A stretch of DNA of 57,268 nt, the filler included, from Stramenopiles sp. TOSAG23-6 (taxonomy: Eukaryota): the NCBI GenBank assembly GCA_900128565.1. It is 4 parts of 4 records of this genome, joined end to end, with 100 filler letters (N's around TTAATTAATTAA, not from the genome) between each part and the next. Parts side by side here need not be neighbours in the genome. Positions count along the whole stretch, not along the records: positions 1 to 14,330 come from LT636143.1; 3 more parts are not named here. The stretch is one strand, 5' to 3'. The notes beneath the pieces were generated by a model. The model was not told the origin of the DNA and did no database searches. It saw only the letters and a program-made list of their open reading frames with translations. Below, piece by piece: positions 466 to 57,268 of this stretch. The position numbers and the translations under genes are program-made. Positions within the stretch are counted from its first letter, which is position 1, and each line of letters begins with the position of its first letter.

Positions 466-2090
466 ATGATGAATTTTAAAAAAGAAATGGAAGAGCCATT
501 TGTTCGATTAGAAACTGGAAATTTATCTGTCGACAGTAGTACGAAGGTAAATGATTTTCGCAATGCCCCTAAAAGTCTTCATTTAGAGAGGAATCAAAGA
601 CAGCCTCAAGCACGGAGTATAGTTGCTTTCCTTCGTATTCATCTTACTGCAGTCGTTTTGTTCACGTCTTTGATAATGGCGTCTTTACAAACTGCAGCTA
701 TGAAAGAATTATCTGATGCAGGTGCACAGAATTGCACGTATACTATATCTGGTAAACGGGATAAACATGCACCCCCAAGACGAACACTTCTGGCAACAAA
801 CTCCACAGGAATTCAATATCTCGACAGACGTTTAGCTCGAAACGGTAGAAAGTATCACCGCCCGACGAATATATTGAATAATGCTGTGAGTCCTTTCAAC
901 ATATTAGTATACGGAAATGTTGTCATTTTTTTTGTTATGTTGACTATTTATGGAAGAATTGAAGTTGTTCGGTCGGCAAAAAAGCTAACAAAGAAGCAGT
1001 GGCTTGTACGTTTTCAAAATTGAACTTCGATTTTTTTTTACTAAGAAAATTTTGTACCTAACGATTTTTTTACTAAAAGAAATATTTCTGCACAATACTT
1101 GCTTTGAGTATGGGGTCATTGTTATATTCCGCGCTATGTCAGTCGTTTACATATTTGGCCCTTCAAGAGACATCTGCAATTAATGTGTCAGTATTGACTA
1201 GACTGGAACCTATAATGATTATGGTTCTAGCGAGGGTTATTTTAAATGAAAAAGTACCAATACATAATATTGCTGCAGCTATTATCTCATTGGTTGGGAT
1301 TTGTATGACTTTTGTTTACCCTACCATCTTTTTAGATACTGATTTTGAGTTTGGTTTAGGTGAGATATTTGCAATAATTGCTGCTACATGTGTTTCATTT
1401 AGTAGTATAATATCAAAAACAATGTTAAAGGAAGTTCCTCTTGGGCTATTCATTATTTATAGATGTTTTCTAGGGACAATTTTATTCTCAATCATAGGTG
1501 CAGTGCTAAATGGAGAATCAAACCTCGTAAATCCTTTTCAACTTTGTTCTGGTGTGTGGTTTTGGATTTTTGAATATGCCGGTCTATCAGTACTAGCTTT
1601 GATATTGTGGTTTGGTGCTGTTAAGCGGGCATCAGCGCAGTTATTATCACTCGCTACTAGTTTTGGATTTGTTATATCTTTAGTTGTATCATACTTTGCT
1701 CTCGGAGAAGTTCCAAGTGAAGCAGAATGGGTTGGTGCAGCACTTATCATTCTTTCATTATTAACTGCTCAGATCGGTGAAGCCTTGAAAGCAAAGCGTG
1801 AAAGATATGTCGTACTTGAAGACGGTAGAAGAGAAACAAGGATAATGTCAGCGGATGGTGAACGTCTTGAAATTTGCTGCTCTTTAGGTGATGCACCACA
1901 TGGAGGTTCTGAAACTAGTATCACTCTCTTACCTTTACATAACAGCAATGGTGAAGATGATAATAATCTAGAAGATACGAATTTCGTAGATGAATTGAAC
2001 AATCTTCGTTTAGGTATTGTGGAAGCATTAGGAGATAACATCGGTGAGGAATGTGCTCCAATAGGTGCAGGAGCTATTATAAGATATTAA
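466..2090 (+). CDS. EamA/DMT-family membrane transporter; exons 466-1005 and 1101-2090
   Basis: Many hydrophobic helices with EamA-like motifs (ALQETSAINVSVLTRLEPI; LGEVPSEAEWVGAALII). The two ORFs join in frame after removing the repeated intron. Confidence 0.8.
1006..1100 (+). other. Repeated-family intron, GT...TT (95 nt)
   Basis: Donor GTACGT, core TTTTGTACCTAAC, end CACAATACTT. Exon TT precedes the donor. An in-frame AAG at 1077-1079 is a possible canonical alternative acceptor. Confidence 0.65.
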
Positions 2091-2120
2091 ATTATAAGAT
2101 ATTAAATTATAAGATATTAA
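2076..2120 (+). repeat. 15-bp tandem repeat x3 (ATTATAAGATATTAA) spanning the EamA stop codon
   Basis: Three exact copies at 2076, 2091 and 2106. Confidence 0.9.
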
Positions 2121-2161
2121 ACTCACACAATAAATACTATTCCATTTATTATTAATCTAAA

Positions 2162-4051
2162 TCATTTTGATTCTTCTAAGTCACATACTACTGGAAGTGA
2201 CATTTTTTTAAGATTTTCAAGATGCCCTGAAAGCTCTGCAGCATTTAATTTATTTTTTTCTAATATATGTTTTACTTTAGAATCTATACTATTCGTTGTC
2301 TTTACTGGTATTTCTGGTATTTCTGATGTTTTTGTGTCAGTTCCACTATGGATTTCTCCAATTGGAGGCTGTATGATAGATTGTTTTGCCTTGAACTGCT
2401 CTAAATCGTGTATTTGTTGAGTGTAATGTTTTATGCGAATATTATAAGATTTCTTCATTTTTTCATGCTCTACTTTTTTCTTTGCAGCACTTACCTTGAC
2501 GCGTTTCAATTCCTTCTTTAATTTGGTCGTTCGCCGCTCGGAAGACTCAACTCGTTTATGTGCTTTTAGAAGAGTTCTCTTTGCTAAAGCGCGAACTTCT
2601 TTCAACGCTATTTCTAATTCACTTATTCTATTTTCATTTCCATTTTTTGATTTTTGGGTTTCTGAATTTTTTTTTCCACCTTCAACATTTGATGTATTCA
2701 TATCTTCATTTTGATTTTTATCACAGTCCCCATTTCTTAACTTTTGAATCAAAATATCTCTCTCGTTTATTTTTTTTCTTGCATCAGAACGAATCTCATT
2801 ACACTCAGCTTGCAATCGGGTAATTTGATCATGTGCATCATGCCGAAGATCAGCAAGCTGTCGAATAATAGATTCTTCCTCCAGACGAATTTTAGTATTT
2901 AATTGTTCGGATTTTTCTATTTTTTTTTGAGCATTTGATTTTGCAACTGATGCCTGTAGTCTGAAAGCTTCCTTCTGTTGAAGCAAAGATTCTTTGCAGC
3001 TCTGAAGTTGGAGCTTTAATTCAAGACGTTCAGATTTTAAGGTATTAATATGCTGATTTAACATTTTCTTTTGTTTATTACCTGCTGCTCTTTCATCCAT
3101 CAGTTTTGTATCAAAAGTATCGCGTTCTCTTTTCCGTTTCATTTCTAAATCTTCACATCGAATTTGTAATGTTCTTATTCTATCTTCAAAATCTGAAACT
3201 TGTTGCAACGATGACTTTAACTGTAAATGAAGTTTTGCATTGATTGAATCAGATGCTTCCGCTTTTTTTTCAGCCATTCGTTTTTGAGAAGAACTTGATT
3301 TTGTCTGAGCTTCAAATTCGGCTAATTTTCTTGCAGTTTCAAGTTTTGTAGTTTGACTCTGGACGTAAATTTCATCACGATTTGATGTGATTTCTTCTAA
3401 CTCAACAGAAAGCATTCGGTTTTGCACATTCAAATCATCTATTTTACCTTGCATTGATCGAAGACGTTCAGGCCATCCCATACTATTTGCTTTTTTTCTA
3501 ACTGACTGAATTTGTTGCTGAAGTTCCTCGACTGTTGCACGGTGGGACTCCTGTTGAGTTGCCAATTCAATATCTTTATGCATAGTAAATTCCTCAAATT
3601 CTGATTTTAATAACTCATATTTATGCTGCATACTAAAAGATTGTTCCTGGTACTTTTCTTTCTCTGTCTTAATTGCTAACAAATGCTCTTTGTGTTTTAC
3701 AGAAACTTCTTCCTGAATTTTCAGTCGCATGAGCTCTTCTTTTCGAGGTGGAGGTAGCTTTGAACGTAATTCATTCAAATTGCTCACTTGTTCTGCCAAT
3801 TGATTATTTAAAATCTGAGTTATATCAGCGTGATTGGATTCACAGTTTTCTTTCTCCTTTATAATATCATCATACTGTTTCTGAAGTTCTGCAAAATTAC
3901 CTCGTCCCTTTATGTGATCTGCTTTTAAACGGTCGTAATTTGACTTGAGTACTTCATTTTGATCCCGTAGAGTACGACACATTGAAACAGTTTTTGCTAG
4001 ATCCACTTGAAGCTCTGTAATTTGATCCATCAATGTGTTGTGTCGTTTCAT
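2162..4051 (-). CDS. CEP83: Centrosomal/distal appendage coiled-coil protein, CEP83 (CCDC41)-like
   Basis: 629-aa coiled coil. N-terminal segments KSNYDRLKADH, PPPRKEELMRLKIQEE and EKEKY...YELLKSEFE resemble the CEP83 N-terminal region as I recall it. Confidence 0.6.
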   Translation of the reverse strand: MKRHNTLMDQITELQVDLAKTVSMCRTLRDQNEVLKSNYDRLKADHIKGRGNFAELQKQYDDIIKEKENCESNHADITQILNNQLAEQVSNLNELRSKLPPPRKEELMRLKIQEEVSVKHKEHLLAIKTEKEKYQEQSFSMQHKYELLKSEFEEFTMHKDIELATQQESHRATVEELQQQIQSVRKKANSMGWPERLRSMQGKIDDLNVQNRMLSVELEEITSNRDEIYVQSQTTKLETARKLAEFEAQTKSSSSQKRMAEKKAEASDSINAKLHLQLKSSLQQVSDFEDRIRTLQIRCEDLEMKRKRERDTFDTKLMDERAAGNKQKKMLNQHINTLKSERLELKLQLQSCKESLLQQKEAFRLQASVAKSNAQKKIEKSEQLNTKIRLEEESIIRQLADLRHDAHDQITRLQAECNEIRSDARKKINERDILIQKLRNGDCDKNQNEDMNTSNVEGGKKNSETQKSKNGNENRISELEIALKEVRALAKRTLLKAHKRVESSERRTTKLKKELKRVKVSAAKKKVEHEKMKKSYNIRIKHYTQQIHDLEQFKAKQSIIQPPIGEIHSGTDTKTSEIPEIPVKTTNSIDSKVKHILEKNKLNAAELSGHLENLKKMSLPVVCDLEESK

Positions 4052-4390
4052 TCTAAACTTTCAAAACAAAGTTGTGTGTTGATATCAATAGTAATGCGTA
4101 AAGAAGTCGTGAAAAAAGTGAAGTTTGAATTTTTGAAAGTTTCGAAAATTTGAATTCAAAATATCACGAAATCGGAGTTTCGGAGTTATAATTAGCAAAA
4201 TGCGGCATATTTCGTGCGTAACTTACGGTAGCTGACTCTATTACCGGCGACTACCGGGCGCGCTCTCATTTATGAAAAACAATCAGTACTAAATATAACA
4301 GGAACTATAAAGCGTTTGATTTTTTACCAACGAACTCGAAGACACATTATTACATCCCCAATATTATTTGCTGAACTTGGCTGAACTCCA

Positions 4391-7300
4391 ATGAAGATTT
4401 TATGGAAAGTGCTCCTTCTCATTTGTAGTGCTCATGAAACACTTGCGTCTCTTTCGTCACAACCACAAGGTCCGCCAGGACAAATAGTTGTTGACCTTAC
4501 TGAGTCTGACAAAATTCCAAGTCAACACCAATTTTTAGGTGCTTCGGTTGGATATCAACTACCAATGGTTGCAGCACAGCCAGTTCTGCCCAATAATCCT
4601 CAGCCTTTTGTAATGCAGTCTACATATCAAGGATATCAACCCTCGTCTTATCATCAACAACAATCGCAATATGGTCAAGGTCCGGGTCAAGGTAACCAAC
4701 AAGGGCTTCAAGAGGACACATCCATGTCTTTAAATGAATTTTCTGATCATCTTCCTGGTTCAGGAATACATCTACCTTTACCTAATTATAATGAACAATA
4801 CGCACAGCAATTACGTCAGCAGCAACAACATCAATTGCAGCAACAACGGCTCTTGCAACAACAACTCTTGCAACAGCAACACTTGCAGCAACAACATTTG
4901 CAACAGCAACGATTGCAACAGCAACGATTGCAACAGCAACACTTGCAGCAGCAACACTTGCAACAGCAACACTTGCAACAGCAACACTTGCAACACTTGC
5001 AGCAGCAACACTTGCAACAACAAAACTTGCAGCAGCAACACTTGCAGCAGCAACACTTGCAACAGCAACACTTGCAACAGCAACGATTGCATCAACAAAA
5101 GCTTGTCCACATGAAACGAGGTCTACAAGTACTGAAGCAAATGCAAGTGAAGCAAGATAAGGCTATTGAAAACGAAAATCTACAAGTCCAAAAAAAGCAA
5201 AAACAAGAAAGAGAATCATTCGATCGTGAATGGGCAGCGAAAGTGGCAATGCAAAAGCAAATGCTAATTGAAAAGCAGAATAAAATAAGCAATCAAAGAT
5301 TGGAAATTGCAGCAAAATTTGACAGTAGAGAATTCTATTTACAATCTGACTTGGAATTTGAAATGAAGAGAAATTCCGACAAAATGGAAGAATTCGAAGG
5401 AATGAAAGTGAAAATAATAATGCAAATTGAGGAGCAAATGAAAGCAAAAAGGGAAGCGTTTGAGAATAAGCAGAAATTATTTGCAGCACAGGTACTTAAA
5501 AAAAACAGTGAAATGCAAGAAAAACTTTCTTATCAAATAATGCAGCAAAGTCAATCAATTGCCGAACATCAAAGTAGTACTACCCAGTCGCCAATTGGTG
5601 TTGGTGGGGCGGGCAGCACAAAGGGCACAAAATCAAAAAAAAATGTTGGTGGTGGGGCGGGCAGCACAAAGGACACAAAATCAAAAAAAAACAAAAAAAA
5701 AAAGTCAAAAACAAAACAAAAAAAATTGTTGAAGATTCGTTTCTTTCCAGAAAATGATGGGGGTGAAGATTTTCGACTCGCTGTAAAAGAAGTGAAGGCA
5801 TTGCCACAATTTATATATGGTATTAATCAATGGACGTCTGTTGAACATAACGGTAATCCCCTGTTTCACAGTGTATTAAAGAAACATATTATAAATACAA
5901 AGATACTTCTTGAAAATGGTGCAAAACCAAATATATCGAATCGTATTACAGGAATGCTTCCGTTGTACGTAGCAGTTCGTCAACAAAGTTCAAAAATTGT
6001 AGAAATGTTATTGAAGATAAATACAGAACAAAAAGGAACAAAGAGAGTATGGTTAATTCCGCAATTCGGTAAAATGAGAAGAGATGCATGTTTTATTTTT
6101 TGCAATTTCGAATTTTCTTTTTTTCGTACGAAATTTTGTACCTAACAAAACAAATATCTTTTTCTTTTCACAATACATGCAGAAAATACCGTGAATTTTC
6201 CTACACCTTTTCATCAAGTTGCGCAAAATGGAAATGTGGAAATCATGAAGTCTCTATTGCAACATCCCATAAAACAGAAAACAAGAGCTAAAATTCTCGA
6301 TGTAAGGAAAAAAGATTCTGGTCACACTGCGTTACATATTGCTTCATTCTATGGACACGTAGAAATTGTAAAATTATTATTGTCAAATGGTGCATCTCCG
6401 GATATTAAGGAGAATCAAGGTCTAACTCCAGTGGAGGTTGCAAACGATAATCAAGAAGTTATTTCTTTATTCAAAAGTTATATACCACAGAAAAAAAGAA
6501 AGACTCGAAAAAAACAAGATGTTGTAAGTAGAGCCAGAAGTGTTGTTCCTGATGATTTTGAATCTGAAAGTGAATCTGAAAGTGAATCTGAAAGTTACGA
6601 ATATCCAGATTCAGGTTCGCTTCATCATAATAATGGTGATGAAGATTATGTGGGAACAGAACATTCAAGACCAGGGACCAGACGAAGTACCAGACGAAGT
6701 AGTGGACTATCCGCCATCGAAAATAAATTATTTTTGAATTCAGATGACGTTGAGACATTGCGCGTATCACTGCACAATAATAGAGCATTTTTGACTCGAA
6801 GGAATAAGCAAGGCGATACAGTTTTATTTCATGTAGTTAGGAATAATTATGTAGACAGTGCAGACCTTGTTTTACAGGCTCTAATACGAAATTCAGGACG
6901 CCGAATGAATGGAACGGATAGTAAGGGTTTTACGCCGCTTCATTTGGCTGTATTTAATGACAGTAGAGATATGGTAATGAAGTTACTTGAATATGGTGCA
7001 AATCCGAGTATACCTATTAAAGCACCGATTCAGAACGAATTTGAAGAGAAATCTCACATTAAATATCAAGGTATGACGCCTTTACATTTAGCTGCACTTA
7101 GCGGACATCTCAATATCTTGTACATATTATTACAAGACAAAAGAATGGACAATCACTTGAACAGTATAGATGATAAAGGTAACACAGCTTTGCACTACGC
7201 TTGCTCTCAGGGACATACAAGATCTGTGTCACATGTATGTTTTATTTTTTTTTCAATTTTGAATTGTTTTTGCGTACGAAAATTTGTACCTAACATTTTT

Positions 7301-8353
7301 TTTTTGAAATATTTTTCCAAAATACATCTCGTCCGAAATTATGTCTCAACCAAAATCAGGAATGATGATGGTAAAAGTGCATACACAATGGCACTTGACA
7401 GTGGTCATACGGAGACAGCTCGAGTATTACTTGAAACAGAGCAACACTTAAAACAACAGAGTAAAGATGAACGTATGGCAAGAAAACGAAAACAAGGTAG
7501 ATTTGTCATTAAAGTTCCACTAAAGGTTCTTTTACAACATCAAAAAGCTTGTAGAGTTGGAGGACCAAAGGGATTTCGTAAAGAAAAACACACCACTACG
7601 ACACTTCTTCTTCCAAGGCTCTTTGGTCATTTTGTTAATGATGATGGTGATGGTGCATTTGATGATGGCGACGAAGGACCATCAAAGAAGAAACAACGTA
7701 TTTCTACTAATTTTAATACTGGTCCAAATTCAGTTACTGCTATCGATGATTCAGGTATTGGCCTTCAAAGTCAAAGCTTACCAACTGAGAAAGATTTAAA
7801 TGCCGTAAGACGTTCTCTATTGACTATACAAAATAATCCAGACTTCAACACCAAGGCTAGATTATCAAAAATACAAAACAAAAACGATTCTTACGGCCTG
7901 ATTGCGACAAAACCGATAAAAAAAGACGAATTAATTGCGTATTATGTGCTTGATCTTTTCGATGGTAGACAGGCAAAGCATGCAGAAAAAGTAATTCAAG
8001 ATTATTATGTTGATATTCCTGAATTTTTGATAAAAGAATCCGAAGTTGATGTGGTAGGTGTGCCACATTTACAAAGTGTTGTAAAATCTGGTCTAAAAAA
8101 CGATGACAACATCAGTTTCTTGGGGTTATTTTCAAATGAGCCAAATCCGCACGAATCTTCAAATGCTGACTTAGGTTGGCTTGAAAACGAAGATGGAAAA
8201 TTAAAAGATGTTGGAGGCCAGGTGAAATTTGCATTATATGCGACTACTGATATACCAATAGGAATTGAAATACTATGGTGTTATCGAGGGTTGTATGTAC
8301 GAGATTATAAAACAAGTTGCCCAAATGATTCATCTTCACCTGGTAACGCATGA
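4391..8353 (+). CDS. Signal peptide + polyQ + ankyrin repeats + C-terminal SET-like domain; exons 4391-6085, 6179-7234, 7328-8353
   Basis: Hydrophobic N-terminus MKILWKVLLLICSAHETLA. Several ankyrin motifs (GHTALHIAS, GFTPLHLAV, GNTALHYAC). SET-like motifs YGLIATKPIKKDE, FSNEP and YATTDIPIGIEILWCY. Confidence 0.8.
4838..5097 (+). repeat. 15-nt coding tandem repeat encoding (QQQHL)n
   Basis: Repeated CAACAGCAACACTTG-like units within the ORF. Confidence 0.9.
6086..6178 (+). other. Repeated-family intron, GC...AT (93 nt)
   Basis: Donor GCATGT, core TTTCGTACGAAATTTTGTACCTAAC, end CACAATACAT. Contains an in-frame stop. ATGCA flanks both sides. The next AG (6181-6182) is out of frame. Confidence 0.8.
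7235..7327 (+). other. Repeated-family intron, GT...AT (93 nt)
   Basis: GTATGT...GTACCTAAC...AAAATACAT. Removal restores exact ankyrin spacing GHTRSVSH|LVRNYVSTKIRNDDGKSA. Confidence 0.85.
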
Positions 8354-8493
8354 ATGATATGAAAATTATTATATTGCAAATTACATTATGTTGCTTCATT
8401 TGTAAGGCATTTTATTTTTATTATTATGATTTTCTAAATAAATTGCCCAATGAAAAAATAGTACTTCAGCGTACACAAACACAAATCAAAACA

Positions 8494-13355: not shown

Positions 13356-13370
13356 TAACCCTAACCCTAG
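13356..13370. promoter_or_regulatory. Telomere-type motif TAACCCTAACCCTA in divergent promoter
   Basis: One of five similar motifs, all in 5' intergenic regions. Confidence 0.5.
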
Positions 13371-13663: not shown

Positions 13664-14263
13664 ATGTTTTCGACAACCGATTCTGTTCCAAGGTTACCTC
13701 ACCCTGTGACTAGTTTGGATTTACGAAGTCTCTCCAGATTTTCAGCTCTTCTTTCATTGGGATCTGGATTGAAGTGCGGATATTTATTAGAGCGTTCTAG
13801 AACTAGTAAGTCATTTGAGACTGATTGGCGTAGGCGCTGGTTTGTGTTAAAGGAACGTCAACTTTTTCATTATTCACATAATTATAGTGATAGCCAAGAA
13901 GCCTCTAACAACCGAAGTAATTTTGGTACAGATGTGGGTTCAATATCTCTGGTAGGTGTTGAGCCATGTGACATTTCGGAGTACGTTTTAGTTTTTTTCA
14001 ATTTTTATCTACATTTTTTTTCATACGAAATTTCGTACCTAACGATTTTTTTTAAAAAGAAAATATTTTTTCACAATATATGTCGCAAGATTCAAAATCC
14101 TCGTTTATATTTGAACTTGATTTACCACGAAGTTTTCATCAGCTAAGAGCATCTACTCGAACTGAAGCACAAGAGTGGGTTCAGATTCTACAAGAACAAG
14201 TCCGCTTGGTAAAAGAGAACGAATACTTTAATATGGCTGAACTCATCATTGCTGATAGTGAAT
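13664..14263 (+). CDS. PH-domain protein, 3' truncated by contig end; exons 13664-13980 and 14082-14263
   Basis: KCGYL...WRRRWFVLK...GSISL...FIFEL...LRAST..EAQEWVQIL forms one PH domain only after splicing. Confidence 0.8.
13981..14081 (+). other. Repeated-family intron, GT...AT (101 nt)
   Basis: GTACGT...TACGAAATTTCGTACCTAAC...CACAATATAT. The phase-2 join GA|G restores the PH frame. AGs at 14058-14059 and 14088-14089 are out of frame. Confidence 0.8.
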
Positions 14264-14330
14264 GTATATTTTATTTTTTTTTTTTACAAAAAAATCGAAT
14301 TTTTTTTTCATACGAAATTTTGTACCTAAC
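14264..14330 (+). other. Repeated-family intron, 5' part (contig ends in the conserved core)
   Basis: AT|GTATAT...TACGAAATTTTGTACCTAAC followed by Ns. Confidence 0.8.
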
Positions 14331-14430
14331 NNNNNNNNNNNNNNNNNNNNNNNNNNNNNNNNNNNNNNNNNNNNTTAATTAATTAANNNNNNNNNNNNNN
14401 NNNNNNNNNNNNNNNNNNNNNNNNNNNNNN
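14331..14430. other. Artificial contig linker
   Basis: 44 N + TTAATTAATTAA (stops in six frames) + 44 N. Confidence 0.95.
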
Positions 14431-14457
14431 AGGGAGGATTTTGTCTGTCCCATGAAG

Positions 14458-14555
14458 ATATATTTCAAAAAAAAAAAAAAAAAAAATCATTAGTACAACA
14501 TTTTTGTACGAAAAAAAAAATAAATTTAAAATTTCAAATTGAAATGAAAACATAC
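14458..14555 (-). other. Repeated-family intron, GT...AT (98 nt)
   Basis: Minus strand AT|GTATGT...CGTACAAAAATGTTGTACTAAT...GAAATATAT. The host exons are not identified, so the acceptor is less certain. Confidence 0.6.
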
Positions 14556-14651: not shown

Positions 14652-14743
14652 CTGTATTTTGGAAAAATATTTCAAAAAAAAAATCGTTAGGTAAAAAATT
14701 TCGTACGAAAAAAAAATCGAATTTGAAAAAAAATAAAACATTC
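14652..14743 (-). other. Repeated-family intron, GA...AG (92 nt), possibly chimeric
   Basis: Minus strand AT|GAATGT...TTCGTACGAAATTTTTTACCTAAC...AAAATACAG. Confidence 0.6.
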
Positions 14744-23752: not shown

Positions 23753-23764
23753 TTAGGGTTAGGG
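23753..23764. promoter_or_regulatory. TTAGGGTTAGGG motif upstream of the gene starting at 23527
   Basis: Exact double telomere hexamer, next to a TTTCGTG motif. Confidence 0.5.
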
Positions 23765-28696: not shown

Positions 28697-28796
28697 NNNN
28701 NNNNNNNNNNNNNNNNNNNNNNNNNNNNNNNNNNNNNNNNTTAATTAATTAANNNNNNNNNNNNNNNNNNNNNNNNNNNNNNNNNNNNNNNNNNNN
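28697..28796. other. Artificial contig linker
   Basis: 44 N + TTAATTAATTAA + 44 N. Confidence 0.95.
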
Positions 28797-28847
28797 CGAA
28801 ATTTTGTACCTAACGATTTTTTTTTCAAATATTTTTCCAAAATACAT
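28797..28847 (+). other. Repeated-family intron, 3' part ending ...AAAATACAT
   Basis: The contig starts within the core CGAAATTTTGTACCTAAC. An open coding frame follows. Confidence 0.8.
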
Positions 28848-30497: not shown

Positions 30498-33400
30498 TTA
30501 TTTTAAGATTTCATCTAAATTAGTTTCGATACTTGCAGTGTCTGTTGTGTCAACTTCCACAACTTTATCAGCATAAAGTTTACAAATTCCAGCAATTTCC
30601 CTTTGAAATATATCATCTGATTGTCTGACTACCTTTTCACCAGCCCGCTCATTGCGAACGTTCACAGATGCAGTCAGTTTAATAACATGCTCAACAACAC
30701 CAATATTTTCTTCAAGATAAAAAGCTTGATCATGATGCATTGGAAAACCTGCAGAAATTGTTCGAGGATATCCCGATATGAGAAACTTCTTCCCACTTCC
30801 AGCACTTCGCATTTGAACATGAGCTACTCTTGCAACCACGTCATTTGGTACTGTGCGCTTGAGACGTATACATTTTGCAATAACCTTACCATCTTCAGAT
30901 CCCATTGATGCTTCGTTATCAAGAAGTAAAGGAATATTGAGATGAACATATCCATATCGTCTCCCTAAATGTATTACTACATCATCCGAAGCAGTACCTG
31001 CTGGGGATAAGAGAAGTGAAACGTTCGGTAAGAAGATTTTTTCGCATTGGCTGAATGTTTCATCAATACTTCCATTCGCATCAACCATTCGTAACATGTT
31101 TCTTCTTTTTAGTTCGGGAATTACTGGTTTAGTCAAAAGATTCCATGTATTAAATCGTTGTGCGATTGCTACTGATGATAATCCCAAACGTTCCGCAGCG
31201 ATATTTTCTTCGACATTAAAGTAAAGGCAAGAAGAATGTGACGATAATCCAATTGTTTCTTGAAAACGTTGGATTTGTTCTCGAGAACGGGGATATCCAT
31301 CAATAAGAAATCTCCGTTTACCAGATGCTTTCATTGCGTTGTGTAACATTCGAAGTAAAATAAAAGATGGAATAATTTTTCGTTTCGCCATCATACTTTG
31401 TACCATTTTCCCTGAAGGAGTTCCCCTCTCACATTCCGCCTTGAGCAGCGTTTGTAAACACAATCTTTGATAACCAAATGTAGATGCTAGTTTGTTGCAT
31501 ATAGTTGTTTTTCCTGCCCCAGGTGGACCTATCGCAAATACAATCTCATTGATAAACATTGAATGTGACCGTTGGTAAACGATTTCATTACCTAATGCAG
31601 AATCAGCATAAGTTACGAGTCCTCGCTTTGAGAAGTAATTGATGACAGGTAAACATTGCTTATCAAAGAGCATTCTTTTTCTAGCTTCGCTACTGTTTTT
31701 CTTGACTGAACCATCAGCATCCTTTTTTATGTACAAAACACCCGTTACATCAGCCACTCTTTGCTCAAATGCTTTTGCTTGATCAAGTGCACGTGGAAAT
31801 CCATCAATAACATAACCCCTTGCTCGACCACCACATGCGCTCATGGCTTTGCGAATAATAGACAGTGTTAGTGAAATTGGTACAATTTGCCCCCCGCGAA
31901 TGATTTGATCAAGTTGCTTGCCCTCAGCTGATCCACGAGCTACCTCTGAGCGAAGTAAATCGTCCACGCTAAGATGTACTAAGTTGAACTCCGTTGCAAC
32001 GCGATCACATAATGTTGTTTTTCCAGATGAAGAAGCACCTAAAACAAAATAAACTTTTGGTTCCAATGCTAGCTGCACATCTTGCCATACCTTATCGCTT
32101 GGATGGTTTGCATCGACAACTCTTTCAAGGCCAGATCTCGAGTAGAATTCTGCCATTGGCTTGATGGATGCAGTATATGTCGCAAAACTCTCTTCAATGG
32201 ATTTTGCATCACGACCAAGTTGAGCAAGACGTGTTTTACATACCTTGACCGTAGTAGAAAGATGAAGTACACATTGAGGAGAGCCAATACACTTCTCAAA
32301 CATAGCAGCGTCTGATCGAGAGTTTGGCCAACCACTTATTAAAAATTTATCATTGGTACTCTTCTCCATTGCAGCTTGAAGGACTTCAACGACAACAGGT
32401 GCTTCTACTTCTCTACCTGCATTAGCTCTGGCTGAAATTAGTTGACCAACTTTTGATCCAGTATTTTCTTGAGCAGCCAAAAGTTCAGGCACAGAAATGT
32501 TTTGAAAACCATATTTTTCTGAAATTTTTCTACAATGAACAGACTTGTCACAACCCTCTGGACCAATGACAAACACTGTCCGTGGCATAAATGCAGTATG
32601 TGCCTGAGTCCAAACCTGTTCTGCGCTTTCACTTGCAGATATGTTCCATACTATACCAAGTTTGCGATAAAAATCAATCAAAGGTTTTGAAAATTTATGA
32701 AACAAATCTATTCGCTTTTGGTAGACTTCCTCGTTATCATCACTGCGTTTTTCAGTCTTTGCACGATTTCTTAATCGCCGTTTCATGATGTGGTCTGAAG
32801 TATCCAAATTAAGGACAAAGCGACATGGAGCAACTTCACGCTCAAAGAGATATGCTTGGTCAATTTGTCGAGGGTAGCCATCAATTAGAAATTTTTTCGA
32901 TGGATTTGACATGATTGCATCCTTTAGTAGTCGGAGTACGTGTTTAGTTGGTACAAGTTCACCCTTGCTAATATGCGCATTTATCGTTTTACCAAGTGGT
33001 GTCTCTCTTTTCTGTTCTCTTCGAAGTAAATCTCCTGTGCTTATATGAGCATATCCAAATTCTTTACTGATACGTGCACACACCGTTCCCTTACCACTAC
33101 CTGGACCACCGAGGACAAATACAATTTGTTTTTCATTTGGTTTTGAAACAACTCCAGCTGGAAGAACTGTATCGACTAAAGTAGCTTCAGGAAGTTCATC
33201 TGAATCTTCAACTACATAATAATCTGCAAAACCTTCGTCAACAACAGGATTGCTTGGATTATTATTACGTAACCAATAGCCAAGCCATCGTATGGCATCT
33301 GAACCGATAGGTTTTTCTTTGCATAGTTCAGTGAGTCCATATATTGTGAAAAATATGTTACATTTGAGATTCGTTAGGTACAACATTTCATAAGGAAAAA

Positions 33401-34271
33401 AAAAATATTTGAAATGCATTATGAAAACGCACTTCAACAAGTGTAGAGTGAAGTGTTCGTTTTGATGATGGGCCAGCACATGCAGATGACAAATAACCAC
33501 GAGCTTCATTGACTGTTTGTTCGCCTTGTTTGTTTAACTGTGGGAAGAAAAATGAAATTTCTCTATTTGCACTCTTTGTCGAATCTGACCCATGAACAGC
33601 ATTTCGTTGCCCATTTAAACCAAATTGAGCTCGAATTGAATCAGGAGCATCAACACGAGCGGTATTTGAGTTTGTGGGCCCACATAATAAACGCCAATGA
33701 CTGATAGCACCAGGTTTGGCAAGCACCATTGCATGAAGAGGACCAGATGACATGTATTTTGGAAAAATATTTCAAAATGTTTTCTGTTAGGTACAAAATT
33801 TCGTATGAAAAATAAATTCGATTTTTTTGTTAAAAAAAAAAATAAAACATACATGAAGTCTGTAAGACCATTAAAGAAAGACCTTTTTGAATGTTCCGCA
33901 TAAAACATTTCAGCACGAGATTTTGTTAATGTAACATTTAATTTCTGCACTATCGTAAATCCAGCATTCTCCACCATTGCGACAATTTTTGCTGCATTAT
34001 TATTAGCAAAAGCATCCGGTTTGATCAGCGCAAGAGTTTTTTCCACTTCCAATCCATCAGGAAACCAAAATTTAAGTTCCCGATCAGCGTCGTTGCCAGT
34101 GGCAGATCCATGTGCTGCATTAGATTGCTTATTTTCTCCATATTGGGCTCTAATTGTATCAGGTGCAATTTTGCGTGCCTCGTCACTATCAGTTGGGCCA
34201 ATAAACTGGCGCCACGCATCCACAGCATTTTCTTTTTCTAATGCTAAAATTACAGTTTTCCCCGAAGACAT
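30498..34271 (-). CDS. NDP kinase domains + Dpy-30 motif + five adenylate/UMP-CMP kinase-like domains, 5' part missing; exons 34271-33853, 33751-33433, 33338-30498
   Basis: NAAHGSA and NAVHGSD NDPK motifs, EKTLALIKPDA, Dpy-30 TLVE|GLTELCKEKP...WLGYWL. P-loops GGPGSGKGT, GASSSGKTT, GPPGAGKTT plus two degenerate ones. Confidence 0.9.
33339..33432 (-). other. Repeated-family intron, GT...AT (94 nt)
   Basis: AA|GTGCGT...GTACCTAAC...CACAATATAT|GGA. Removal restores the Dpy-30 motif. The next AG is out of frame. Confidence 0.85.
33752..33852 (-). other. Repeated-family intron, GT...AT (101 nt)
   Basis: AT|GTATGT...GTACCTAAC...AAAATACAT|G. Removal restores the NDPK motif LTDFMSSGP. Confidence 0.9.
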
Positions 34272-34364
34272 ATGTATTTTAGAAAAATATTTCAAAAAAA
34301 ATTCGTTAGGTACAAAATTTCGTAAGAAAAAAAATTCAAATTTGAACAAAAAAAAACAACATAC
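34272..34364 (-). other. Repeated-family intron, GT...AT (93 nt), joining two unrelated coding regions
   Basis: AT|GTATGT...GTACCTAAC...AAAATACAT|ATG. The upstream exon is phase 2 and the downstream exon is phase 0. Confidence 0.75.
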
Positions 34365-36846: not shown

Positions 36847-39203
36847 TTATGCATTGCTTCCTTCCCTTACGAAAGCAAACTTACTAAATCGCATGCTAGG
36901 TGCATTCCCAAGATTTCGTGATGACTCTGTTTTAATAGTGAATTGGATTTTTCTATGTTTCATTTCCAATATTGGAGTTTCAGGAATAAAACTGATTTCG
37001 CTTTCTTCTGAGCATTGGGATTGTTCAATAGTTTCTTCTGTAGTAGATTGAAGCATTACTTCACTCTTTATATTATTACAACTAGAATTTGTATTTATCA
37101 ATCTTCGTTTTTGTTTGGGTTGCGAAGATTCAGATTCGTCTTCAACTGTCGAAGAGCATCGTTTCGTTGGCTTTTTTTTATCTTGAAGTTCCTCAACAGC
37201 AAAAGTATTAGTACTATTTTTATGACACAATGAAGATTTCTCAAAACTACTATTATGATATATGTTGCATAGGTTTGGATCGTTCTGTTCATTTTTAGTT
37301 ATCTTTTGATCACATATGAATCTATTTTGTGATGTCATTCTTTGAAGAACGAGTTCATTTACTGGTGCCGTAGCAGCAGAACTTCGAGATTCTTGTCGAA
37401 TCATAGCAAATGACTTATTCATATGATCACTATGAGGTACCTGAGTGTTGCTTTTACTTTGACGAAATTTATCTAGACGATTTTTGATAGATTTTGTTGN
37501 ATGATTTTTTTTTTGGCTTTTTATTTCTCGTTCACTTTTATCATCGTTTTTATTCGTCTGTTGACGGAAATCGAATCGCGAAAATTGTGACAAATTATTA
37601 GTATACTTTTGTTTGCGGCTTCTTTTACTGGCACCACTATTAGAATTGAACCTTTTTAATGAAGGTATAGAAGATTTTATAGATGTACTAGATTTTCCAT
37701 TTGAAGAGTTCCAGAATCGACTAACTCCCAGACTCTTCCTACTATTTGAAGAATTTGACGTATTTTCAGAATATTTATCATTTTCATGTACATCGGAATT
37801 AATTGAAGTTTCTCTCGGTGCTTTAAAGGGAAATGCAACTTTAGCAGAGTCTGGAACTTTCGGGTGATGTGAAGCATATTTTGTGTTACGATGGCCTAAC
37901 CCTATCATTTGATTTTTACTTTTGTTTACAGTTGAAGGATTTTTACTTTTATTTACATTTGAAGGATAATTTCTATTATCTGTTCGCGTGAAGAAGTTAT
38001 CTATGGTAGCATTCTGACTTATTTTTGACCCAACTTGTTTAGCATCTTTACGAGAATTTGTAGTTGTAGGAATATTTATAGTCTCATAAGGTTTTTTAGT
38101 GATGGGATCAATTTCTCCTATTGCAATTGCGTGGACAATATCATCATCAATAAGCGGACCAAGAAAGTCAATGGCTTGAGGTGGCAATCTTTCCATTTCT
38201 TCTGGAAGTGGATGCAACGGAATGATAGATTTCTTGCATGGACTATATACTCTATGATGAAGAAACGTAAGTCTCGCGCGTTTGAACATCTTATCATGTA
38301 TTGTGTGAAATAATTTAGAAATGTGGAATTAGTGAAAAAAAATGTTAGGGACTAAAAAAAAAGATAAATTTAAAATTCACCATTAAAAAGTACATAATCT
38401 AATGGAATATGTTTTAACCTCCCATTTAATCGTAGTTTTGATAGCAATTGTTTTGTGTTTCGAGCCCCGGAAGTCGCTCGATGGGCAGTAATAATTCCCA
38501 TTCCTTTCAAATTTGGGAGGTAGTCACATCCGGCGAGAATGCACATGTTGAGTAATTTATCTGACGTCCAATTTAGTAGAGATATTTTTTCACAACTTCC
38601 CAAGTTGTTGCGATCATATTCCTGGCCACACAATGTATCTGGATTTAATTTAAACAAAACTTTCTTACAACCATACGGGATACAGTCTGAGTCTTCAGAG
38701 ATTACAAAATCGACAAGATCATTCATAGACATATATGCCATTTGGGCGTCTGCTTCATAAGGTGCGACTATATATTGCAAATTACGCTTCTTCATCTCCT
38801 GTATAACTTCATACGCCATTTGAGGACTGACATCAACGGACATTGCAAAGCATTGATTCGCTGCACTATATTCACCTTTTCGGGCGAATTCTTCAGCCTT
38901 TCGTTTGTTCTCGGCACGCGATTCAGCGCGTTTTTCTTCGGTACCAGATTTACTTGGCAATGGCCCCCCATCAAATATCATGATAGGCTTTACACCATAA
39001 CGTATCAAATCATCTAGGCGTTTCATGATGTATTGAATATGTTTCCTTGTCGGCCGACCGTGGGCAAGGTCACTCGCACAGCAGTACACTGACCTATGCA
39101 GCCACGCGTATCCGTCAATTGCACAAGTTTGACCAGCATATGAAGACAAGTGTACATCATCTAACACATCCTTGATTGCTGAAAGTAAGCCCCCGATACC
39201 CAT
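36847..39203 (-). CDS. EXO1: Exonuclease 1 (XPG/RAD2 family); exons 39203-38394 and 38295-36847
   Basis: MGIGGLL, AIDGYAWLHR, IFDGGPLPSK, VAPYEADAQMAY, SEDSD, CILAGCDYL, and spliced PLDY|DKMFKRARLTF. Confidence 0.95.
38296..38393 (-). other. Intron, GT...AT (98 nt), diverged family member
   Basis: AT|GTACTT...CCCTAAC...CACTAAT...CACAATACAT|GAT. The AT acceptor keeps EXO1 Y-x-x-x-F spacing. An in-frame AAG 6 nt downstream would delete two residues. Confidence 0.75.
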
Positions 39204-40050: not shown

Positions 40051-40361
40051 TATTTAACTATCACTTGAAGGATATACTACTCAGATGAATGAAGAACAAC
40101 TTTCAGTTCACAGTTGAGGTACTTGGCCAGTCAAGTTTGTATGCAGTGACTGTAGTCGTTGCCAGTCAAGTTTTTGTGCATGCCAATCAGTTACAAAAAA
40201 AAGTCCTCAGACTTTTTGGGTTAGGGTTGGGGTTTCTTTAAAGTGTCAGTTTAAATGCATCTTGTCAATTGTAGTAGCAAATACGGTACCGTTAATTCTG
40301 TGTATTTCAACAGTTCTACGATACGCCCCGGTATCTTGCATATCATTCAGTGAAAACACAT

Positions 40362-40436: not shown

Positions 40437-41022
40437 CAAGCTACAAATATTTTTTTGTTGAAGATGGATGAAGCACTAGTGGATGGCGTGCTTTCAAGCT
40501 GGACCAAGACAAAAGTATCCGATACTGTCAGACTTTTTCAGAGTGAGAAATGTGGGATTCCATGTAGTACTTTATCGAAACATTTTAGTTATTCGTCCGT
40601 ATGAAAGAACCAAAGTCAAATAAAATATAGTGAAATTGATGTTCACTCAGATAATGAACGAGAAATATGGGGCTACTTTACATTTGGGGAACGCTACAAT
40701 CTATGAGTGAACTTTTTGGAGGTCTTGGTAATTCAAACACACAAGATATATGAAAATGTATTCAATTGAAACGAAATTTTACTGATAATAAAGTTGCTTA
40801 TCAGTCAGAGTATTGTTGATTATATTGATCATATTGAAAAAAACATAAAAAAAAATCGAACGCCTTTTTTGTACCAAATTTTATACGTAACAAATTTCAA
40901 AATTTTTGTTCTGATTTGTTCAATTTGTTCATTTTTTTTTTTCGCTTGCTAATATTGTGATTTGTTTTGTGATTTGAAAGGTTTCGTGACAAAATCAACT
41001 CATAAAATACGAAATAATTGAA

Positions 41023-41102: not shown

Positions 41103-42410
41103 TTTGAGTCAAATTTGGGTTCTTGTGGTTCTGCTGGTTGGCATTGTATTACCTCTTCGACTGGGGTATGATCCCACCGTTGTCGAAGTGATGGCATGTC
41201 GGGACAACTTATTAAATTTTTCATATTATCTGAAAGAGAATTTTGATAATATTCATTTGACACACATAGACAAGTTCTTTTTAATTCATCTTTGTGAACA
41301 AATTCTTCAGAGAACATTGTTTCATCAATGCGAAATGAAGTTTCTTGTCTTATGGAATGTAAAAAATATTTTTTTTTGTACAATTTGTTAGGTACAAAAT
41401 TTAGTATGAAAAAAAAACATTTCAACTAAAAAAAAAAAAACCTACATGCTAAACCCTGGATGCTCTTCTATGGCACAGTCAATTATTGGCAGTGGTGATT
41501 CACTATTGTCAATGAAACCATTCTCTCGTGCTTTATTAAGCTCTGATGTTATATTCTCCATGAGATGTATAAGCGAAACTTCATTCAATTTATCTGTCAA
41601 CATGTTTCCAGCTGCTCTAAATTTAGGGTATATTGTGATTGTTTTTCCAAGTAAATTGTTATTTCTCCAATAATAATTTTTTTTAATGGGTTTGTTATTT
41701 TTTGTTGACCAACCCGGGAAATCTCGGTAATTGGAGCGAGACAAGTCTTGATTATCATTGTCAGTATTTATAATCTTGAAACAAAACTCCATATCCATAA
41801 GTTTATCCATGACAACTCTCAGTGCATTAGCCATAACTTCAGGCGTTCCAATGGGTGGAGAATAATGCAATTTCATTGGTTGCCAATATCTTCTTCTATT
41901 TTTAATTACCTCCGATTGTGTAGGATTAAACAAATCAAAACTTGAGGAGGTAAAACCCCATTTTGCGTTATCCTGCCATTCTTCGATAACTTTTGCATAC
42001 TCTACTGCATAAGCATAATCTGAGGAATCATCAGATTGATCATTTTCATAAAAAGGAATATTATCTTGGCAAAATGTTTTCAATTGACCTCGTGAATAAA
42101 AATGTGTCGTTAACGGCGCTAAACCAGATAGCAAAATTTTCGCTTTATTGAGACTCTCCTTTATCTTCTCTATTCCCTTTATCGAATGATCAGCATTTTG
42201 TTTTTGTTGTGCGTTGCTGTCCAAAAGTCCCAAAGTTTTACTGGAGGTAATCATTATTTCATCATTTAGTTTTTGAAGTTCAAATAGTTTCGAAAGAAAC
42301 GACGAAAGGTCGTTTATTTTTATGCCTTGTATGCCTTCCTTGGCGTGTACAACAAACTCTGTGTTATACAGTATAACCAGGAAAATAAAGAATACATAGG
42401 TTGTTTTCAT
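41103..42410 (-). CDS. Secreted phosphothreonine lyase-like protein (OspF/SpvC or LanL/LanKC lyase fold); exons 42410-41446 and 41351-41103, 3' end in gap
   Basis: Signal peptide, then ordered motifs MKLHYS, FCFKII, GKTITIYP, ELNKARENG...PIIDC and spliced FSI|RQE. Confidence 0.6.
41352..41445 (-). other. Repeated-family intron, GT...AT (94 nt)
   Basis: AT|GTAGGT...AAATTTTGTACCTAAC...TACATTCCAT|A, phase 2. An in-frame AAG 3 nt downstream would delete the motif Arg. Confidence 0.7.
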
Positions 42411-51482: not shown

Positions 51483-54400
51483 ATGCTAATATCTAATGCT
51501 CTTTACACGGACACAAAAATTGTTGATGCATTAGACACTGTGGAATCTGATCTGTCTTCCTTTTCAAAACGTCTTTGTAAGGCTGCTTTGAATGAAATGA
51601 TTGACTTAGAGAACACCATCCTTTCTAAATCAAATGGTAGTCTCATAGAGGAAGTCAATAGTAATATCATAGAGGAAGTCAAGAGTAATATGTACATGCA
51701 TCCAACGCCAGTATGTTGGGGCAGTAGTCGTTGTCAGAGTACAGACGCTCATGATAAATTAGTTAGGTCGATACAAAATCATTATCAAGAAGCTAAGCAA
51801 CAACAGATAAATCCTACAGCCAAAGAATCCAAGCAACTTCCTCAGTGGATTTGCGAACTACCAACAAAACTTCCTGATGTACCACAAGGGCTTCGTGAGT
51901 ATTGCAAAAGTGTGGTTGAAAGTGGATTAGTTGCCGCCGCTAAAAGTTTTCTTAAAGATGAAAATATTCCAGATTCATTACTTTCACCTGTGAAACACGT
52001 TATTAGTGGAAGAAGCGAACAAATTAGGGAATTAAGAGACCCAAAATGCGCACAATTTTTTGCTACATTATTTCATCATATTCAATTCAACGCACCTACG
52101 GCTTGCGAGTTTACAGGTTGGGATCTTTACCATGGACATTTATTTCTTCACAGAAGAGATTCTTTACGAAAAGGTGTCACTCAAAATAAATTGCTACAAA
52201 ATTCTGTACTTACTGAGTACTTGCAAAGTACGTATGACATGGGAATACTCTTTCACGCGAAGGAGCATCCTCGTGAATATTCTTGTACTGGTAAAAAAAT
52301 ATATCCTATCGGTCATAAATTAATGGGTGGTACAAAAGATCCTCGCTCAGGCTCGAAATGTAGTGTTCGTGATACTGACTACGGTCTCCGAAATTATCTC
52401 TGGCTCATGTCGTGTGTACGTTTTCATTTTAATTTTTTTTTGTTTTTTTTGTTTTTAGTACGAAATTCTGTACCTAACGATTATTTTTTTGAAATATTTT
52501 TTCACGATACGTAATAAAATCGTAGTGTTAGACCCAACAGTTGAAAAGGGCTTTCCCAGCCAACTTTTTCAAGATGGAACTGCTGGTAGTATTTTTCTTT
52601 CAGTGAATGCTTTTGGATTTGGCCTGTATCTTGGAGATGTTAATTATTTTCCTGGAATCACAACCAATTTTGATTGTACGAATCATAAATTTAGTTGCAA
52701 AAATAGTACAAAAAATAGTTGTGTCAAAAAAACATGCAAACTCATAAGGGTAAAACAGCTTTGTGCTATTGCTGATAAACAAAGAGCTTCAATTGGAATA
52801 CAATACACATGTGAGAAACAAAAGAAACAAAAGGGTACTCATATAAGACAAAAAAGCGATGAAAGTTCGAATAATGATGCAGATAGTGACACTAGTGGTG
52901 ATAATGGAACTATTTTGGAAAGTTCGAATAATGATGCAGATAGTGACACTAGTGGTGATAATAGAACTATTTTGGAATCATTGAATTCAACTATAAATTA
53001 CACGGAAGGTAAGGTGAACGCCATGGAGCAGTTGGAAACAGGTAATTCAGAGACAAATGGCATACGCAATAATGACATAAATGAAGATTCAAAATGTATT
53101 GGTGGTACGATAAATAAATCACTAAATGACATAAATGATACTGAAAGTGGAGTTTGTCTAGGTGGATTGAGTGCTAATCGATTGAGAGAAATATCAGCTT
53201 GGCGAAAGAAGCACAAAAGTAGCTATAGTATTGATGCTATCTTGGGTTCTGGAGATTATGGTTCTGATATACAGATTGCTCTTACGAGTTCAAAAGCATA
53301 TAATGCACCAGCTTCGGATTTTTGTCTTTATGTTCTCAGTTTAATTGGTATAGCCATAGATAACGCAGAGGCATATAATAGAATAAATGGCGCAGCTAAT
53401 ATAGAGCACAAACGGGTAAGTTCACTTGAAGACCATCAAGTTCTTCACACATCAACATTCAATATTTATTCTGTTGCAGAAGCTGCAGAAGCCCTAGACC
53501 TTTTAAGTGGATGCAAGATTGCTCAAGGGTTAAAAATTATTCTGAATTCTTTGAATAAAATTGTCAATCCTGTTCTATCTATGCTATGCGCTGAATCAAG
53601 GGCAGTTGCAACAGCTTCGTTTACAAAGGCAACAATGCGTTTATCGCGGATAGAGTCAGAGGTGGAACAAAAACGCGAAAAGTCTTTTTTGGAAGAAATG
53701 GCTAAACTTCAGAGTAATGTTGGTGCATTCGGTCTTACTCGATTGCATGCCGCGAAGAGCTTGGATTTAACAAAAAAACTATGTTTTACTGAAGGAAGAA
53801 TAGCCTATAGTGCTTTTAGAGCTGAATGTTTATTGTCTGTAGCATTTCCTCAATATAGAATAAATTTAATTAAAGAACAACAAAAGAGAATTTCAACACC
53901 TCATATTGGAAAGGCTAAAAGTGACTGTGTTCATATAAAAGATGTATTATTTCAAAGACTTACTCTAGAAAAGATTGTAGGCAAAACTCGAAAGCGAAAC
54001 AATAGTAATGTACAAGACATTAAGAGTACATGGAAGGAGTCATCGATTAGTGGTATCCAATCACAATCATTGCTGTCTAAAACAGAGGCCTATAAAAACC
54101 TAGTGCATCGTAATTGTGTGACGTGTGCATCTTCAATAAAAATGCACTCTGAAGACATTGATATTGGTTCTTTACACTCCCGTCGTCGCGGTATTCGTTC
54201 TTCGAAACCTATTCTAACAAGAGGTGACTCAATTCAAAATCTTTCTGTATCTGAAGAAACAAAAGAAAATATGTTATGCTTGTTCTGTGGTAATGTATTT
54301 TGCGGTCGATATACAAATCGCCACATGTTAGATCATATGAAAAGTAGTGGTCATTTGGTAGTTATTGGATTAAAAAAAGGCACCATTTGGTGTTACGGAT

Positions 54401-57207: not shown

Positions 57208-57268
57208 GTATGCTTTATTTTTTTTTCAATTTCGAAGTTTTTTTTTCGTACGAAATTTTGTACCTAAC
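57208..57268 (+). other. Repeated-family intron, 5' part
   Basis: AT|GTATGC...TTTCGTACGAAATTTTGTACCTAAC at the window end. Confidence 0.8.

Follow-up and report, generated by a model that had tools for sequence, protein, structure and literature searches.

An introner-like intron family with a probable non-AG acceptor, seemingly the only introns of a compact stramenopile genome

Gene content and host of the window

The stretch of DNA analyzed here (57,268 nt; hereafter, the window) comprises four contigs of the Stramenopiles sp. TOSAG23-6 assembly (GCA_900128565.1), with N-TTAATTAATTAA-N linkers between them (14331-14430, 28697-28796 and 43037-43136). Its GC content is 31-40%, and open reading frames (ORFs) of at least 120 codons cover ~83% of it (summed). 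The window is intron-poor, and every intron that we found is a copy or relative of one ~95-nt element with an unusual 3' border; a scan for other donor and branch combinations identified no introns of any other kind in the window. One family seems to make up all introns of this compact stramenopile genome, and it is the subject of this report.

Pfam analysis identified eukaryotic nuclear genes encoding THO complex subunit 2, a multi-adenylate-kinase protein, a Cys-loop channel and an RRM protein, and further window genes with XPG-type nuclease, MatE, EamA and ankyrin/SET domains. The top labelled relative of the RRM protein is a EukProt coding sequence with a MAST-3-type label (89% identity), and the next matches are from diatoms, Triparma and brown algae. 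One MAST-3-type-labelled gene model is identical to the window translation across all aligned blocks. Judged by these matches, the host is an uncultured marine stramenopile of the MAST-3 kind.

Anatomy of the element

Motif and repeat scans of the whole window, followed by inspection of each site, located 14 copies of the family in at least nine genes. Eleven copies are complete (A, B, C, D, F, H, I, J, K, L and M), and three are truncated by the end of a contig or of the window (E, G and the 28797 copy); there are also one diverged intron (N) and one degenerate fragment (Table 1). All 15 intron copies lie in sense orientation to the ORFs, either within an ORF or between ORFs of the same strand, which agrees with the roughly 15 sense copies in unrelated genes reported in a first-pass annotation of the window. 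Three contig or window ends (14330, 28797 and 57268) fall inside the element, as expected if a high-copy repeat interrupted the assembly.

Complete copies are 92-104 nt long, with a mean pairwise identity of 64% (range 48-85%, n=11). The shared architecture consists of a 5' end reading G[T/C/A]AYGTTTT, a palindrome adjoining a CTAAC branch box, and a 3' ATAY box followed by two bases. The aligned consensus runs from exonic CAT through GTATGTTTT, a T-rich segment, CGTACGAAATTTTGTAC-CTAAC, a second T-rich segment, GAAATATTTTT, C(A/C)AAATAC and two bases to the next exon. Donor G at positions +1 and +5 is invariant in the 11 aligned copies, and the 3' end lies 32-38 nt from the branch box. The terminal two bases of complete copies are AT in eight and TT, GT and AG in one each; the last intron base is T in 10 of 11. 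The canonical GT/GC-AG borders of Micromonas-type introners do not fit the family, with an AG acceptor in one of 11 complete copies.

The termini carry an apparent short inverted repeat, GTAT...ATAC, of ~4-9 nt. The first-pass annotation had described GTAT...ATAC ends, and short inverted termini do appear to be present, but the copy on which it focused starts with GCAT: 6084-6181 consists of AT, the intron at 6086-6178 (GCATGT...CACAATACAT, 93 nt) and GCA.

Table 1. Copies and relatives of the element in the window; sequences are given on the intron strand, and "+" precedes the terminal two bases.
Feature	Position	Strand	Length (nt)	Sequence at ends	Upstream exon dinucleotide	Intron ends	Gene or context	Remark
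A	1006..1100	+	95	GTACGT...CAATAC+TT	TT	GT-TT	EamA-type transporter gene (466-1005 + 1101-2090)	frame restored
B	6086..6178	+	93	GCATGT...CAATAC+AT	AT	GC-AT	ankyrin/SET gene	no GY-AG alternative with the same donor
C	7235..7327	+	93	GTATGT...AAATAC+AT	AT	GT-AT		in frame and stop-free, so ORF callers read through
D	13981..14081	+	101	GTACGT...CAATAT+AT	GA (mismatch)	GT-AT	PH-domain gene	
E	14264..14330	+		GTATAT...	AT			5' part, contig ends inside
M	14452..14555	-		GTATGT...TACTAAT...; 3' end ATATAT (14458) or CTTCAT (14452)	AT	GT-AT (either border)	MatE gene	downstream exon cut by contig end, leaving two candidate 3' borders
L	14652..14743	-	92	GAATGT...AAATAC+AG	AT	GA-AG	MatE gene	sole AG-ending copy; alternative border 93 nt, with two frames of the following 32-codon exon not separable by Pfam or solved structures
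28797 copy	28797..28847	+		...GTACCTAAC...CCAAAATAC+AT				3' part at contig start
K	33339..33432	-	94	GTGCGT...CAATAT+AT	AA (mismatch)	GT-AT	NDK-ADK gene	most diverged family member
J	33752..33852	-	101	GTATGT...AAATAC+AT	AT	GT-AT		splits Met codon of an NDK motif
I	34270..34364	-	95	GTATGT...AAATACAT+AT	AT	GT-AT		same site as J, preceding NDK repeat
N (diverged)	38296..38381	-	86 or 83	CTAAC + CACAATACAT, no palindrome		GG...AT (86 nt) or GT...AC (83 nt, 38298-38380)	EXO1-like gene	joins XPG_N/XPG_I ORF (38370-39203) to ORF 36847-38289
Degenerate core fragment	40846..40891	+					between two minus-strand ORFs	no splice ends; 78% over 46 nt
H	41352..41445	-	94	GTAGGT...ACATTCC+AT	AT	GT-AT		no ATAY box
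F	52416..52512	+	97	GTACGT...CGATAC+GT	GT	GT-GT	zf-UBP gene	
G	57208..57268	+		GTATGC...	AT			5' part, window ends inside

Borders supported by reading frame and protein homology

Each intron was modelled from the conserved first G to two bases past ATAY, and openness was checked over 150 nt on each side. The spliced product was open throughout this span in all 10 copies tested, and the rule of ATAY plus two bases gave the frame in seven of nine tested family copies (A, B, C, D, F, J and K), where chance would give one in three for each. The earlier placement of the acceptor two bases after ATAC is upheld to this extent, albeit copy I (34364) needs four.

Comparison of the predicted products with homologues confirmed three junctions at the protein level. 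Excising J (33852-33752) rejoins the NDK motif FM^SSG (the caret marks the junction), and excising I rejoins the same motif in the preceding NDK repeat; at neither junction is there a gap in the printed alignments with the multi-NDK proteins P0153, P0155, P0156 and P0157, and the P0153 alignment has 0 gaps in 213 residues. This comparison was made with distant homologues, as searches with the I/J gene returned nothing above 55% identity at near length and nothing above 47% at longer length. Excising C (7235-7327) leaves exactly 33 residues between two ankyrin repeats.

We exhaustively enumerated GY-AG alternatives that retain the conserved donor. There are none for B, C, I and K, and the one alternative for J would remove 17 aligned residues. 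Because four copies have no AG solution and that of J is contradicted by homology, the acceptor, as read from these frames and alignments, is not AG in at least five of 10 copies. The first-pass proposal of an acceptor that does without AG is thus sustained for these copies, whereas its wording that the duplicated dinucleotide serves "whatever its sequence" was too strong, given the prevalence of a final T and the AT ends that follow GA and AA.

It is conceivable that the elements are not removed at the predicted borders, and that either AG sites are used or the elements are retained in mRNA, with the frames arising by chance. Consistent with this, the donors of A, H and F can each be paired with an AG that preserves the frame (the closest being 21 nt upstream in A, ending at 1079, and 3 nt downstream in H), copy C is open in frame, and the element is abundant in poly(A) RNA contigs: from one run (X6), 751 contigs were placed, with a depth of 894-3,195 in the four bins with element copies. 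However, all 10 model products are open, J and I are gap-free relative to homologues, C gives the 33-residue ankyrin period, most copies contain stop codons, and B, C, I and K offer no AG solution, so we give this explanation very little credence. In addition, a metagenome strain carries a 2-nt deletion in copy K, which fits non-coding sequence and would not be tolerated in a coding region; the naive ORF nonetheless reads through K.

The repeated dinucleotide and the probable insertion site

In eight of the 11 complete copies, the intron ends in the same two bases as the exon before it, compared to 5.3 expected in pairing shuffles (P=0.017). A tabulation of upstream against terminal dinucleotides, which the first-pass annotation had proposed on a genome-wide scale, was run on these 11 copies and revealed a modest but significant correlation with three mismatches: D (13981, GA/AT), K (33432, AA/AT) and L (14743, AT/AG). 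The terminal dinucleotide therefore usually repeats the upstream one, as had been claimed, but not in these three. The reported TT/TT pair at 1006 (copy A) and GT/GT pair at 52416 (copy F) were verified, and the probability of these non-AT matches is P=0.009. Among the four copies with a non-AT upstream dinucleotide, two match (A and F) and two do not (D and K). D and K are among the more diverged copies, so later mutation is possible.

AT stands before the donor in nine of the 13 family copies with the 5' end present (the first-pass count was 10 of 16 donors), and the background frequency of AT is 0.096. C is frequent at position -3, as is G at the start of the next exon, which points to (C)AT^G as the preferred site. 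CATG is palindromic, so direct and inverted repeats are indistinguishable in AT/AT copies; the repeat of copy A is direct, not inverted, with CTTG on both sides. Because T is last in 10 of 11 copies and two copies end in AT despite upstream GA or AA, AT itself, or at least the final T, may act as an independent signal. Two read-through peptides from public proteins were too ambiguous to be counted: the second copy in P0217 is compatible with GT/GT, and P0218 has AT upstream with a terminal codon that needs G at -2.

The matching dinucleotides also bear on how the element spreads. Excised intron RNA could have been reverse spliced into other transcripts, followed by reverse transcription and recombination, in which case the upstream AT would reflect an exon end preferred by the spliceosome. 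This would account for copy ends that coincide exactly with intron ends, for the genic, sense placement of all 15 intron copies, for inverted termini that are very short and lack covariation, for D and K without a matching dinucleotide, and for the finding of no transposase in Pfam scans of the 30 larger ORFs of the window. The co-variation of TT/TT and GT/GT, however, is not expected from reverse splicing, and the degenerate fragment at 40846-40891 is intergenic and on the strand opposite both neighbours. Furthermore, with 83% ORF coverage, finding 0 of 15 copies intergenic has P ~0.06, so location and orientation do not discriminate. On balance, we consider spread by reverse splicing unlikely.

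Copy number and probable recent spread

Several copies in unrelated genes are far more alike than the family average: E and J are 96% identical over 69 nt, the 28797 copy and I are 94% identical over 51 nt, and C and the 28797 copy are 92% identical over 52 nt. We placed metagenome and metatranscriptome contigs on the 14.2-kb window contig at 28797-43036, using three poly(A) metatranscriptome runs and one independent seawater DNA run (X3). From the DNA run, 4,799 contigs were placed, 1,312 of them at ≥99% likeness to window copies. Depth was 3,043-12,934 in the four bins with well-conserved copies and 24 in the bin of the diverged copy K, compared to 2.6-10.6 in copy-free bins. The copy number is on the order of a thousand, and the 92-96% likeness between copies in unrelated genes suggests that the family spread recently. 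An element 20-mer had 0 matches in metagenome contigs and 0 in viral contigs, and a protein-guided scan of metagenome contigs found no relatives. The sole 20-mer match in 185,579 prokaryote genomes (a Bacteroidales metagenome-assembled genome, L001:6187-6206) has unrelated flanks and was dismissed as chance.

Copies I and J interrupt the same codon (Met of FM^SSG) in two tandem, anciently duplicated NDK domains of one gene. I is more similar to L (0.85) and C (0.81), both in other genes, than to J (0.74), which argues against simple inheritance with the domain duplication; the pair reflects either two parallel insertions into a CATG hot spot or the refilling of an old position.

Intron-poor eukaryotes tend toward long, rigid donor and branch signals. 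The introns of the window might accordingly be old and ordinary, with their likeness imposed by strong selection on long splicing signals and with no recent mobility. The shared site of I and J in duplicated domains is compatible with this, and the diverged intron N retains only CTAAC and the CACAATACAT end, as expected of signals. However, the likeness extends over all ~95 nt, also where no role as a signal is known, and it reaches 92-96% between unrelated genes. The greater similarity of I to copies in other genes and the 1,312 DNA contigs (of 4,799) at ≥99% likeness to window copies also tell against old introns, and we therefore regard this explanation as quite improbable.

Splicing machinery and RNA structure

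Shifting each intron 2 nt upstream gives an AT-AC reading with an identical mRNA for AT/AT copies. As a general rule, this reading was rejected, as I becomes AT-AT, a stop codon appears in L (92-nt model) and the 5' ends are mixed elsewhere; intron N is compatible with it. The inverted termini can be written as GTAT(G)TTTT/AAAATAC, for which 81% of cells pair over nine positions, a value not above that of shuffles, and only one pair is changed on both sides. No consensus RNA fold was predicted from the aligned copies, nor is any hairpin supported, and Rfam gave no match anywhere in the window.

The introns might instead be handled by a minor (U12-type) or U12-like spliceosome, an explanation that concerns the machinery and is compatible with mobility. 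U12-type branch sites lie roughly 10-15 nt from the 3' end, whereas the box TACCTAAC lies 32-38 nt from it. The donor has G at +5 in 11 of 11 aligned copies, as in U2-type GTATGT, where the U12-type consensus has C; neither the U12-type donor RTATCCTT nor the branch motif TTCCTTRAC near the 3' end is found in the family, and the window contains no small nuclear RNA gene. Support for the U12-type explanation comes from published systems. Non-canonical U12-type introns in human and mouse include GT-AT introns, which the U12-type machinery is able to splice (PMC1557818). In Physarum polycephalum, U12-type introns have massively expanded; they resemble transposon derivatives with a TA duplication, and 17% of the non-canonical ones are GT-AT (10.1101/2020.10.12.336362). 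Moreover, the donor GTATGTTTT shares seven of nine bases with GTATCCTTT, and the box TACCTAAC shares six of eight with TCCTTAAC (consensus from 10.1101/2020.10.12.336362). Taking both sides together, we doubt that U12-type splicing is at work, and the branch distance and donor appear to favor a U2-type machinery.

Proposed mechanism and points against it

We consider it probable (about 0.62) that these are spliceosomal introns, all belonging to a single introner-like element family that is present in high copy number in a compact, intron-poor stramenopile genome and has an acceptor that is not AG. The strong donor that the element would supply reads G[T/C/A]AYGTTTT; the element would also contribute a T-rich body, a CTAAC box immediately preceded by a 16-nt palindrome, and the 3' box ATAY. 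In the first splicing step, the donor and branch box would be used in the ordinary way, since both fit ordinary recognition by U1/U6 and U2. In the second step, the cut would fall 32-38 nt past the branch box and two bases after ATAY, behind a T (usually AT) and with no AG. The machinery that we propose is a U2-type spliceosome that, in its second step, accepts T, usually AT, where the branch box and the ATAY box together define the site. Insertion would occur at (C)AT^G with a 2-bp target duplication, and excision of the element with one repeat would restore the original coding sequence without a scar, as the dinucleotide that follows ATAY is usually a repeat of the one that ends the upstream exon.

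The first-pass annotation had called the element a transposon of the introner type. The existence of one repeated family with very high copy number in the metagenome bears out part of this claim, and removal by the spliceosome at the RNA level, target duplication and mobility as DNA are what the pattern of copies suggests; a DNA-transposon origin, on the other hand, is hypothetical. A broader proposal is that, in a MAST-3-like lineage, the spliceosome needs no AG and the 3' cut is set by the branch box and ATAY box, so that a transposon's 2-bp duplication can serve as the acceptor; one family would then be essentially the whole intron complement of an abundant marine grazer, and public gene models would be systematically wrong there. 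We put this forward tentatively, as a possibility with the odds somewhat against it.

Several observations weigh against the reading that we favor. With regard to mobility, Pfam scans of the 30 larger ORFs found no transposase in the window, and thus no transposase-encoding copy of the kind that the first-pass annotation had suggested looking for; we also found no autonomous copy, no empty site and no polymorphic insertion. Presence/absence polymorphism had likewise been suggested as a check, and none was found in the metagenome, where K, the sole copy comparable across strains, is present in both. Covariation in the terminal helix and the central palindrome does not go beyond shuffles. With regard to the duplication, D and K violate the rule, L has AT upstream and AG at its end, and the statistics come from a small sample of 11 complete copies. 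With regard to the borders, H has no ATAY box, and I, which ends in ATACATAT, requires ATAC plus four bases, that is, the second of two tandem ATs. Intron N is unable to have both a GT start and an end two bases after ATAC, and frame-keeping AG sites exist for A, D, F and H.

The RNA data provide no direct support. No spliced RNA joint across a copy was seen; the 15 joints listed, of 118, all link different repeat copies. Placement of contigs is swamped by the repeat and neither shows nor excludes splicing. Two RNA contigs end beside 3' borders (X8 record 30, which stops at 34273, and X6 record 14, which stops at 41350), and they were not counted as evidence. The stop at 34273 fits the first AT of copy I better, which would shift the frame.

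Comparison with known systems

Few signals in eukaryotic genes are as constant as AG at the 3' splice site. The nonconventional introns of euglenids have no conserved donor or polypyrimidine tract, and a stable helix joins their ends; in the family described here, by contrast, the donor is conserved, the body is T-rich and no consensus structure is predicted. The background given in the first-pass annotation, that some algal introners take a splice site from the target duplication, holds for Micromonas introners, and transposon-like introns with non-AG ends have been described for Fritillaria and Physarum (PMC11282704; 10.1101/2020.10.12.336362).

In Micromonas pusilla, introner elements (IE1) are short non-autonomous repeats present in sense orientation in many unrelated genes; the donor is borne by the element, and a 3-nt target duplication provides a canonical AG acceptor, so that the insertion is scar-free (PMC11282704). 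The family in the window resembles IE1 in consisting of short repeats that form introns in many unrelated genes in sense orientation; however, its apparent duplication is ~2 nt and its acceptor is AT (TT and GT once each). In the tunicate Fritillaria borealis, introns derived from miniature inverted-repeat transposable elements have inverted ends and duplications, the exon repeat forms a non-AG 3' site (AC or AT), and the introns are removed by an adapted U2 spliceosome (PMC11282704). Transposon-like introns with a non-AG 3' site that matches an exon repeat appear to be common to both systems, whereas the 5' ends in Fritillaria are also non-canonical (AG-AC, AG-AT). Here, the host is a protist, a single family is involved, and the acceptor is the one unusual part, the donor and branch box being strongly canonical.

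Amoebophrya, like the present host, is a marine protist with repeated non-canonical introns; these carry inverted repeats as well as direct repeats of 3-5 nt across exon-intron borders (PMC7789003). Their ends are highly variable, their inverted repeats of 8-20 nt form a hairpin, and U1 was not detected (PMC7789003), whereas the termini here are uniform, the inverted ends are short and no hairpin is supported. Physarum polycephalum gained U12-type introns en masse; these introns have inverted ends, a direct repeat of 2 bp lies on either side, and GT-AT is tolerated (10.1101/2020.10.12.336362). The present family has GT-AT ends as well and appears to share the inverted ends and the 2-bp repeat. 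In Physarum, RTATCYTT is the donor, 9-12 nt separate the branch motif from the 3' end, and TA is the repeated dinucleotide (10.1101/2020.10.12.336362); in the window, the donor has G at +5, the branch box stands 32-38 nt from the 3' end and AT is repeated.

What distinguishes this case is the combination, in a single family, of a fully canonical donor and branch box with a near-uniform AT acceptor. No description of these introns was found in the literature searched, and the intron passages of two MAST single-cell-genome papers make no mention of them; in both cases, supplements may bear on the point. If the proposed reading is true, an abundant free-living marine protist in which nearly all introns end in AT would be a natural system for the study of second-step site choice, and it would illustrate how genes can be invaded by a mobile element that does not depend on AG.

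Public gene models

Public MAST-3-type gene models (the ankyrin/SET gene at 4391-8353; P0215-P0224) read through the element, with 31 extra residues at 7235-7327. The same models excise other pieces at invented canonical sites, yet they match the window exactly elsewhere. A profile of the read-through peptides identified 12 further representative proteins, encoded by other genes, in public collections, and some of these carry the element two or three times; 10 of the 12 were looked up, of which eight are gene models sharing one source label and two are from ENA contigs. Because labelled public models read through the introns or excise wrong pieces nearby, proteomes predicted for the group with GT-AG-only tools would be damaged wherever the element sits. 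Surveys of introners that start from annotated introns (PMC12130899) would overlook the family.

Other features of the window

A telomere-like word, CCCTAACCCTA, has eight occurrences at ≤1 mismatch, compared to 0.22 expected; sites include 13359-13369, 23754-23764, 40216-40232, 51371-51381 and 56560-56570, also 37894 and 56955. Most lie in short spacers by ORF starts, several of them between opposite-strand ORFs, and the word is probably a promoter box. The start of the first contig (1-309) contains 136-nt inverted arms that are 94% complementary with a 37-nt spacer, which could have arisen as a chimera during amplification or assembly, or could represent a hairpin-like end. Three 44-nt tandem units occur at 23166-23299, and their reverse complement is found as the last 55 nt of the second contig (28642-28696), whose end may fold back onto the 44-nt repeat. 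Finally, an ORF of 1,133 codons on the minus strand (43085-46486) consists of ~48 leucine-rich repeats, each of 72 nt, and contains duplicated blocks that are 100% identical.

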